64,000 bases of DNA from Somniosus microcephalus. Lineage: Eukaryota. This document shows, in pieces, positions 17,091-20,789 of the stretch (within the stretch, counting starts at the first letter, position 1; the number at the start of each line of letters is the position of its first letter). The stretch lies in contig CM126213.1 in NCBI GenBank assembly GCA_052327205.1, forward strand, positions 117,056,001 to 117,120,000. Direction: 5' to 3'. The notes under the pieces were generated by a model that worked only from the letters and a program-made list of their open reading frames with translations, was not told the origin of the DNA and ran no database searches. A program made the translations under genes and the position numbers.

Positions 17091-18714
17091 TAACTCATTA
17101 TCCTAGTAGAACTCTTGATGCCATCAGAGAAACACTACCTTATTCACTTGTAAGTTTGATCAATAATACATGAATGAGAAAGGAACTTATAAAATAGTAG
17201 CAAATGTAAAATGTTTTTTGTTCCCCTGAGGAGACAGCATTTAGGATTAATTACAGCTCTGCTAGAACTATGGAAAATCTTATTGCCTGATACTGAGTGC
17301 ATCTAAAATAAACCTTGAATGGAATGGGTCACTTTAATGTGTGATAGTTGATAAACTGGATTATTAGTCCTTCGCATGACAGACTCTGCTTTACAGCAAT
17401 GTCTGCCAATTCTCAGTACAAGGATTACTCAATTGCTGCAAAGTGTACAAAATGGCCTAACAAAAATGAATTGAAAGAAGTGTCCCTTTGCAACAATCTT
17501 ACGCCATTCCTGTCAACATCAATTGTTCTCCCATGCATAGCTAATGATTAACTTACTCTTTTTATCTTACATTTTGGCTAAGTATCCCAATTCTAAACTG
17601 GTATACTCAACTTGGGATGCAAGGGCAACATCTAACCAGACTCCAATGTAATCATTTAACCTTTTTCTGTCTCTGTAGGGTGTTCACCAACTAAAGTAAA
17701 CATGAAAGGATTTTACTAAACCAGACCACAGCTATCTAAAATATCTGTGCTGTGCATCTCCAGGACTCCATTTGATTAAAGTCTTAGGTGTACATATGAA
17801 TGCTTATACACTGTGGCATTTGAGTAGGTGTAAAACATTACTGTTCATAAATACTCAACTTAAAAAAAGGGAGTCGTTCTTATTTTTTTTTACGGAATAA
17901 AGCACCTAATTCCCGAGAGTTTTCCTAAACAAAAGAAACTGACTTAAACCAATTTTAACATTAATAGCGAGATTTCCTCATTTTATGACTTAAATGTTCA
18001 TTTATTTAAACAGCCTTAGTAGATCCACATCAAGCTGGTGGGCAATACGGTGCAATATGAATCCGTTAAAGGACTAAAAGAAAATCAACCTATTAGAATG
18101 TATCTGTAATAATCCTTAATTGGTATGAATGACAAATATGTTGTCCGTCCAGTTGTGGAATGCGCAATATTGTCACAGAAGAGCTTCATGAAAATGTAGA
18201 AAGTGCTGATTTACCCACAAGGCTCAGTATTATAAAAAAGGACATTTCTGGTCCTCCCAGTTTAAAGAGAAGCTGTTCCTCAGGCAGCACTTGTCAATCA
18301 CAGAAAACTCGACGGACCCATTGAGGCACATGTTATAGTTGTTTAATAACTTCAAATGTACAGCTATGAATGTCATGAGTTTACTATTATCTGATCAATG
18401 GTGTTGGGATCCTTAAGCTATTAAGGAGAAGGTAATCTCAGGAGACTGATTAGAAGAGTAAGATTACATATAGCAAGGTGATGTTCACTTTTAAAATTCA
18501 AGGTAAATCAGACTGAGCCACACTTGAACTGCTTATGATATTATAATAATTGCTACTATTATATTTTACTGTAATTCTATGTATTTATAAAAATACATTA
18601 TTATTTGCAACAGCCTTCAACACATTTATAACTGAGTAACTGCTTTTCCCAGTACTGTGCATAAGGAAACAATAGGATCTGATGTATTTAAAAAGTCCTT
18701 ACTATGTTAAAATA

Positions 18715-19408
18715 TAAGAAGTCACACAACACCAGGTTATAGTCCAACAGTTTTATTTGAAATCACAAGCTTTCGGAGCGCTCCTTCTTCGTCAGGTGAA
18801 GTGGAGAAATGCATAAAGACACAACTTATATAGTCAGAGAATAATGCCAGATGATTACAGGTAATCTTTCTAACTGCCATTTATCACACCTCGGCAGAGA
18901 GATAATCACAGCAATCAAAGGTGTGAATGGTGTCCAAACAGGTTAGTCAGGAAAACATTACATCAAAGAGCAATGAGGTGGGGTCACAAGGGGTCAAATG
19001 TTGCCGGACCTGCTGTGATTTCCAGCAAAAAAAATGTTTTTTTTGTCTGTTTTTTGTTTTTCATACAGACCCCAGCATCTGCAACATTTGACCCCTTGTG
19101 ACCCCACCTCATTGCTCTTTGATGTAATGTTTTCCTGACTAACCTGTTTGGACACCATTCACACCTTTGATTGCTGTGATTATCTCTCTGCCGAGGTGTG
19201 ATAAATGGCAGTTAGAAAGATTACCTGTAATCAGCTGGCATTATTCTCTGACTATATAAGTTGTGTCTTTATGCATCTCTCCACTTCACCTGAAGAAGGA
19301 GCAGCGCTCTGAAAGCTTGTGATTTCAAATAAAACTGTTGGGCTATAACCTGGTGTTGTGTGACTTCTTACATTTGTCCACCCCAGTCCAACACCGGCAT
19401 CTTCACAC
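18715..19408. mobile_element. Non-autonomous Penelope-like foldback element with minimal hammerhead motifs and a 13-bp TSD
   Basis: Arms 18715-19004 and 19081-19370 are inverted repeats (7 mismatches by eye). An unpaired 38-nt tail follows. ctatgttaaaata is duplicated at 18702-18714 and 19409-19421. CTGANGA...GAAAGCTT is present in each arm. Confidence 0.85.
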
Positions 19409-20789
19409 CTATGTTAAAATAGCATGTAGAATTGATGTCTGAAAATATGAAATTGAATGGTATAGTTGTTTTATAAGTGATCTGGATAATGTTGGTAATG
19501 GAAAAATATTTATGCCACTAATTTTTTAAAAAGACTAACAGATCTCCTATAGCATTGTTCAAATTAAGTTGAATAATAGAAATGTTTTAAAGGTCAGGAC
19601 CATTATACCATGAAATTCACTACTAAAGTGGATCTGTGTTGAAGGTGGATTGTTATGAATAAACACAACTTGAGTTTAACTGTTATTTGGTCAGGGAATT
19701 TTGCAGATTGAAATGTGCTCGTCAGTTTCAGGTGGCAGCTCAGAAGCACCCAGCATTTTAGGACTGTTTTGCATCTATAACGAAGTGTGACATCTGTTAG
19801 TGTTCAAGTACCATTTTTAATATCTTGAAATAGATAGATGTTGATATGTACTTTCCTTCTGTCTTAATGACTTAATGTTCCCAGTATATGATGCAATAAT
19901 AAAAAATATATATTAAGTGGATTGTGCTGGTTCTCGGGGAATAATTTTTAATTGAAGATAATAAGTACTTAAATATGTTTTTTAGTAAAGAATAATATAG
20001 ATGCAGAATGCGTGCAATGCATATCCGATAATCTGCATTTGCTCACAACTACAAAATGGAAAATATAATAGAATGAGATTATGAATGCCTTTGACTTTTT
20101 AATCTCTGATAAATATTTCCCTGTTTATGTAGAATTTGATTTTTGTGCAAAGCTATGATTACATACCCAGGTGCAATCAGCCTATTACAAATAGTTTTGC
20201 ACCTGATTGGAAGGTGAGGGACTGAACTGCATAGGACGTGGATTGTGTGAGAATAGAGAGCCACCTGTTGTAAAGAACAGTGGTCCTGGTCACCACACAG
20301 CAAAGGACAATTAACCTCTTGCATAATGGACCTATTGCACAGATGGTATTGTGAATCTCCCACTATCTGATGTGGCAAACAATCCTAGAGAAAATACACT
20401 CTTGATTTGGAGTTACATTTGCTCCTGTTGCATTAATTCTCCATCATGTCTTGATGGACACAGATTGTTCATCACAAGATACTGAAACAGTGATACTGGT
20501 CAGTTCACCTATTGCACCTGAAATCACCATTATGTCACAAGGCAGTTGCTGTGTTCCATTCAGTAGATTTCAGATAAATATTTATTGATTATCTGTATGT
20601 CACTGATGGTTGCACATTGCAGATATCAATATTCTTTTGAAACACTTGAAAAGAGAACTACAGTTATTATAATATATCCAACACAATCAATGGCATAGCT
20701 GCACATTTTTGGGGGGAAAGTAGTTCTATTCAAATATTTAATGAATTTTCAAAGTGATTATTACAACGTTTGTAACATTTTGGTCTAAT

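Follow-up and report, generated by a model that had tools for sequence, protein, structure and literature searches.

The 720-base hairpin at positions 18702–19421 of the window, i.e., of the 64,000 nucleotides of shark DNA analyzed here, is one truncated landing of a common Penelope-type element in a known pattern of mirror copy plus tail. We are highly confident that the insert represents the 3' end of a Penelope-like element (PLE) present twice, head to head, once with its tail and once inverted and tailless, and this confidence extends to the explanation as a whole: a single 5'-truncated PLE insertion with head-to-head 3' ends, likely made by two-ended priming and predicted to be inert.

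Two inverted arms of 295 nt each (18710–19004 and 19081–19375) are 97% complementary with 76 nt between them, and their 290-nt cores differ at seven positions. A perfect 13-nt direct repeat flanks the insert (18702–18714 and 19409–19421, plus strand); the odds of such a 13-mer arising by chance are ~1e-7, or 3e-5 if 15 × 15 placements are allowed. In runs X4 and X5 the empty site carries a single copy of this target-site duplication (TSD). The left copy in the window is followed by the inverted, tailless and 5'-truncated copy of the element 3' end (18715–19004, minus strand), equivalent to positions 2818–3111 of the 3,144-bp family unit, with a match that extends to 18710, into the left duplication. 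At the head-to-head junction (18995–19004) the exact overlap is 2 nt and the imperfect overlap 10 nt (7/10). On the plus strand, the 76-nt “spacer” (19005–19080) is ordinary family 3' UTR and constitutes the extra 5' reach of the tailed piece; it leads into the direct copy of the element 3' end, or pLTR (19081–19374), and then into a 34-nt PLE tail (19375–19408), which by reference to other copies lies between the family's two 3' end points. Together the direct, tailed piece covers about 2738–3144 of the unit. The first C of the right duplication copy (19409–19421) may alternatively be the last base of the element. The preliminary description had listed inverted arms, a spacer, a tail, a 13-bp duplication, the absence of an ORF and hammerhead boxes, all of which we recovered at the locus; ORFs in the insert are short and at chance level, with no coding remnant among them. 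Its 38-nt tail was present but is 34 nt long by comparison with other copies, the remaining 4 nt pairing with the end of the left duplication.

One arm searched against the 6.4-Gb genome gave at least 1,348 initial candidates, of which the 40 scored were ~98% identical, and upstream of the arm-like sequence in the scored loci lies an ORF with RT and endonuclease motifs. The full natural unit, set by two tails in locus L098, is 3,144 bp long: the ATG comes directly after the tail (as it comes right after the 34-nt tail in tandem family copies), the ORF extends to about 2,670 (broken in L098), and a 470-bp 3' region follows. The insert begins ~65 nt past the stop of this parent ORF. The RT of copy L013, which adjoins the window-like sequence without a break, matched RVT_1 above the cut-off (E = 1.4e-7). 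Pfam GIY-YIG did not match the L013 ORF itself, and for the endonuclease ORF neither Pfam nor a PDB search with one sequence gave a match before homologues were added. With 32 aligned homologues, PF01541 matched the C-terminal region in nine; a profile search of the domain returned T4 endonuclease II (E = 0.0033), and a fold search placed I-TevI first (E = 0.023, TM 0.80 on the target), with no match at or below 0.001. Homologue scan, profile and fold are each weak alone and are concordant, and by these criteria the C-terminal domain of the parent is GIY-YIG. A CX4CxxC linker, with C200, C205 and C208 in at least 90% of the 32 homologue rows, suggests on this motif only a parent of Neptune/Nematis type, clades that are described as having a CX2-5CxxC motif upstream of GIY-YIG (PMC8557442). 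Homologues with 72–92% identity occur across several shark genera, and a literature search on shark Penelope families listed no description of this one. Partial tandems that give a pLTR occur in L066, L075, L089, L098, L125, and L148. With RT, GIY-YIG, pLTR tandems, a one-sided tail and a TSD all found in the parent family, the Penelope-related identity first suggested from the window holds. At L013:1925–2814, a ~94-bp tandem repeat adjoins the family copy. Separately, two shark predicted proteins, P0066 and P0110, whose names are cytochrome P450 and GPR139, include fragments of this PLE ORF, probably through gene-model contamination or exon capture.

The same layout is common in the family. 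Among 38 tail-bearing loci, taken from the best-scored 40 of 1,251 candidates and thus chosen by likeness to the query, 22 had an adjacent inverted piece and 19 had a partner ending at the tailless site; duplications of 9–18 bp accompanied 15 of these 19 loci with an inverted tailless arm. The first 100 position-ordered matches, all selected for an intact hammerhead motif, contained 18 close pairs in head-to-head orientation and none tail to tail, with 12–14 bp duplications in 13 of the 17 pairs scored. From the 64 single matches remaining in that set, 60 were retrieved, and all of these stopped at either the tailless site (40) or the tailed one (20). An inverted partner was present in 24 of them, combining one tailed and one tailless arm in 20, while tailless ends without a partner made up 23 of the 60. 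Junction overlaps of 1–17 bp were found in 18 of 19 pairs. The arm search and the check on recurrence of the foldback, both proposed in the preliminary description, therefore returned abundant copies and a common layout (19/38 tail-bearing loci), together with a junction at this locus that is its own. Three pairs of loci, L111 and L112 (G000:C1, 22.72 and 22.84 Mb), L144/L145, and L003/L004, each show one insertion at two places, identical down to its junctions and flanks; they reflect segmental duplication or assembly haplotypes rather than a unit that transposed. One insertion, L142:2427–3386, consists of four alternating pieces (inverted, direct, inverted, direct) with matching break positions, and is a double fold-back or a nested event.

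Conservation of the catalytic boxes across copies was borne out by an exact search with the intact-hammerhead pattern, which gave 18,545 genome matches vs. 0 for the reversed control. The family motif has a 4-bp helix I, CTGANGA, one extra A, a 5-bp helix II (GGAGC/GCTCC), GAA, and an AGCT palindrome as helix III; cleavage is predicted at the T that follows it (numbering deduced from PMC4209133). This corrects an earlier account of the stems, in which the TCAC/GTGA-type boxes were rightly located, to a stem III palindrome of AGCT and a helix II of 5 bp plus an extra A. The most variable hammerhead position among family pieces is N7. When positions 10.3/11.3 were forced to change, 14 of 14 matches still paired (13 G-C, one U-G), these matches likely stemming from few independent events. 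The Infernal check suggested earlier turned up no hammerhead family among 12 Rfam matches at E ≤ 10, all of them below the gathering score, as were the miRNA matches, which reflect the long hairpin. The ribozyme call thus rests on motif and covariation, by which the family motif is, at the level of sequence, a good minimal hammerhead. Those 14 matches, in G000, have a GGGT/ACCC helix II and constitute a second type of hammerhead, probably that of another PLE family in the same genome.

In the window, the catalytic boxes are in place in each arm and helix II is altered in both. The Meis-sense motif (18763–18799, minus strand) keeps G10.1-C11.1 and is mismatched at 10.2 (18786) and 10.5 (18783), which break helix II; each of these changes occurs in 0 of 68 other pieces. 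In the motif antisense to Meis (19286–19322, plus strand; predicted cut after 19318), C11.1 has become T at 19310, which makes G10.1-C11.1 a G-U pair, and T at 11.1 is seen in five of 68 other pieces. Modeled in isolation, helix II had a pair probability of at least 0.98 in an intact natural copy, 0.7–0.8 in the right arm and at most 0.005 in the left arm; the right-arm value was 0.02–0.04 in a 100-nt context, and pairing probability for helix I/II in the whole-element RNA was 0.0 for either strand. Both window motifs are damaged and are predicted by these models to be buried in duplex and not to fold. Such ribozymes need to act as dimers, judging from PMC4209133, and a dimer within one transcript is impossible here because the two motifs lie on opposite strands. 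Given the helix II changes in each arm, the opposite strands and the pairing probabilities, the suggestion of useful ribozymes or of a dimer is not supported.

Ahead of the right-arm motif, a presumed TATA box (TATATAAG, 19253–19260) is joined by an initiator-like CCACTTC (19281–19287), both judged by general consensus motifs; the A of the latter, at 19283, falls 30 nt past the TATA. On sequence grounds, 19253–19287 (plus strand) is likely the family promoter, and the inverted arm holds a putative mirror version (18802–18832, minus strand) with its TATA at 18825–18832 and a predicted start site at 18802. In a sample of 60 copies, which required an intact hammerhead motif and so barred 5' ends further 3', 12 had their 5' ends within the equivalents of 19282–19287, at the initiator-like motif and 29–34 nt past the TATA; the 100 nt upstream of these 6 nt likewise contain 12 ends (Poisson p = 2e-11 for the pile-up). 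This pile-up likely marks where transcription starts, 3 nt short of helix I. The copies that form it, among loci L119–L178, are ribozyme-only inserts of 90–125 bp. The window copy extends well upstream of this start, so its template was likely the 3' pLTR in a longer transcript. By hand tally, 15 of 63 nearby-starting copies begin exactly at the predicted ribozyme cut. Six of the 15 are joins via the GTGA overlap between helix I strands, and the remaining nine compare with 3–10 per neighboring position, so no clear genome-wide excess of 5' ends was found at the cut, and cleaved RNA templates found no support there. Four loci (L097, L121, L148, and L166) have a 5' end ≤4 nt from the predicted cut, and two of these ends head full-length ORF copies.

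Meis_PKNOX_N exons lie on the minus strand at 37.5–37.6 and 35.3–35.4 kb of the window, and a homeobox exon lies 22 kb left of the window, also on the minus strand. With minus-strand exons on both sides, the insert is intronic and the pre-mRNA corresponds to the minus strand, in agreement with the intronic position first reported; its residues would fit MEIS2 rather than MEIS1/3. The ~290-bp double-stranded RNA postulated for the Meis-sense strand is likewise what folding of the insert RNA predicts (about −560 kcal/mol). In the Meis pre-mRNA, transcription would reach the antisense arm before the arm with the ribozyme, and pairing between the two means that no cleavage is expected; the Meis-sense strand also bears the worse hammerhead, transcribed after its complement. 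No RNA run was listed as a source of the insert, and two RNA runs labeled as this species, of which 24% and 31% were read, contained family reads only, with zero depth on the unique flanks, and listed no read-end pile-up at the predicted cut, which fragmented libraries would not show in any case. From such modeling the insert is predicted to be inert, and a function is unlikely.

Several other readings of the locus were weighed against this one. Long inverted repeats are prone to misassembly, and no contig among those listed spans the central junction or the whole insert; moreover, the best contig source for the insert may be the assembled sample itself. The arms nevertheless differ at seven positions, and flank-element junctions occur in read-derived contigs in the expected orientation, on both sides in runs of organism A and on the right side in organism B. 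A contig from run X4 (organism C) passes directly from 18701 to 19409 with one copy of the duplication, as does the empty site in run X5 (organism D). An assembly artefact is on this evidence practically negligible, and the empty site with its single duplication copy makes this one insertion event, as the preliminary description had anticipated for related organisms. (Short older repeats are present in the flanks at 18287–18389 and 19672–19769 of the window, where other contigs align at ~86–87%.) That description had also seen in the hairpin a small non-autonomous PLE or retrozyme-like unit, which would be mobile as such; the lack of an ORF, a hammerhead in each arm and a clean duplication speak for this, but the central junction has one match in the genome, whether exact or with ≤2 mismatches, and the unit has therefore never spread. 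Junctions and arm lengths vary among the other pairs, the identical loci L111/L112 excepted, there is no head-to-tail array, and all of the sequence belongs to the 3' end of an ORF-bearing family, i.e., to a truncated copy of an autonomous-type element, which makes a mobile foldback or retrozyme-like family extremely improbable. A non-autonomous PLE family, a MITE or a foldback DNA transposon would recur as a unit with the same internal junction, and a MITE would have inverted repeats flush with both ends; all three were rejected, given the unique junction and the 34-nt tail that separates the right arm from the duplication. Co-option for Meis regulation, whether as a duplex that is edited or diced, as a ribozyme that cleaves or as a promoter firing both ways, could draw on the duplex predicted for the Meis-sense strand and on the TATA and initiator-like motifs retained, facing outwards, in both arms. 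We consider it very unlikely: at 1.4–1.7% from the family majority, the arms have drifted about as far as a median copy (1.4%, n = 61), neither has an undamaged helix II, two related organisms lack the insert, and RNA reads of run X21 at 18783/18786 all carry the family allele (73/73) and thus derive from other copies.

As to how the insertion was built, we think it reasonably probable that two-ended priming, from start sites 34 nt apart, builds the insertions of this family. The element protein would cut an AT-rich target on both strands, 12–13 nt apart; one DNA end would start a cDNA at the tail end, while the second would start another at the tailless site, both using uncleaved RNA of one source copy as template. 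Both cDNAs would stop early, after about 405 and 290 nt, and their ends would be joined via the 2–10 nt overlap, with gap filling yielding the duplication and later point changes weakening both hammerheads. The observations at the base of this scheme are the family, its end points 34 nt apart, the layout, the duplication, the empty site, the junction, the same-source arms and the helix II changes. Common source was assessed in 32 one-tail pairs (13 position-ordered plus 19 from the 38-locus set, after removal of the duplicate L112 and of four irregular pairs): arms diverged by 1.9% within an insertion vs. 3.6% across loci, 0 of 5000 permutations were as close, and the arms of an insertion therefore share a source, a likeness to which later gene conversion could have contributed in part. 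The window arms share a variant, at 19115/18970, seen in none of 51 other pieces (0/51). A tail-primed cDNA that reached the truncation point, folded back on a short overlap and was extended with itself as template as far as the tailless site would fit the window copy equally well, with its longer tailed arm and its 2–10 nt junction overlap; private variants common to both arms are also as expected, and the tailed arm is longer in 20 of the 32 pairs (window copy included) and about equal in five, i.e., longer or equal in 25. A related self-priming model has been proposed (PMC3846280). In seven of the 32 pairs, however, the tailless arm reaches >20 nt further 5' (by 62–1346 nt), which simple fold-back cannot produce, and the tailless ends that stand alone (23/60) mark the tailless end as a start site in its own right, so that fold-back of one cDNA is an unlikely, though not trivial, source of these insertions.

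In published work, an Anolis PLE protein cleaves and extends both target strands and uses two start sites bounding the tail, with ribozyme cleavage unneeded (PMC11167929). We infer twin priming in the shark from finished insertions, by analogy with this in vitro work on another clade, Poseidon, and a limited literature search found no paper tying PLE inversion to twin priming. The usual twin priming of L1 inverts different parts of one RNA; that form was rejected here because the same RNA part has been copied twice. More broadly, we lean toward a joint account of shark PLEs in which both strands are cut, each end primes at a different start site on uncleaved RNA from the same source, and the 5' pile-up is the transcription start. 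Under this account the RNA would open with the hammerhead at its extreme 5' end, and internal initiation nearby would yield the 90–125 bp ribozyme-only inserts in vivo.

The locus itself is of little weight, with no sign of function; it is an ordinary member of a described PLE layout and one of many thousands of landings. The family is a useful fossil record of how PLEs build inverted pLTRs and tails, and the two-ended mechanism, if true, would explain the inverted pLTR and the one-sided tail of PLEs together. Countable predictions follow from the family: a tailed plus a tailless arm, independent arm lengths and same-source variants. A further one is that 5' ends fall at the start site rather than at the ribozyme cut. 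The published in vitro PLE system could test these predictions.

Several described systems resemble the insert. Like the non-LTR retrozymes, it is non-coding, derived from a PLE pLTR and equipped with a type I hammerhead (bioRxiv 10.64898/2026.07.22.740005). That source describes retrozymes as units repeated in tandem, head to tail, of which two or more carry an intact motif on the same strand, and a retrozyme was rejected for the insert, which is head to head and single-copy with one motif per strand. With the minimal hammerheads of metazoan PLEs (PMC4209133), the shark family shares the CUGANGA and GAAA boxes, an extra base between 9 and 10.1, a 4-bp helix I and a palindromic 15.2-16.2. The same source reports hammerhead pairs on opposite strands of PLEs, 100–700 bp apart, which the window pair resembles. 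Helix II is 5 bp in the shark family vs. 7–8 bp in Schistosoma, and in contrast to the hammerheads of that source neither window arm has an intact helix II, the right arm having lost the conserved G10.1-C11.1.

PAc, a Poseidon element of Anolis carolinensis, is similar in its two start sites bounding the tail, its AT-rich target and its apparently uncleaved RNA template (PMC11167929). The shark tail ends at the ATG, with the predicted cut ~90 nt upstream, whereas PAc has both inside the ORF, and the shark family differs as well in its Neptune/Nematis CX4CxxC linker. Insertions of the EN+ PLEs Pen2a_Av and Pen2_Av carry an inverted pLTR, a one-sided tail of 30–40 bp and a TSD (PMC3846280; scheme in the Fig. 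2 legend of PMC8557442). The shark family differs from these rotifer elements in its duplications, mostly 12–14 bp vs. 8–10 bp, and the window copy differs in being without ORF sequence. Shared with Pen2a_Av and Pen2_Av are the inverted 5'-truncated copy at the 5' end, the one-sided tail, the short duplication, the TATA and initiator-like motifs in the pLTR, and the partial tandems found elsewhere in the family.
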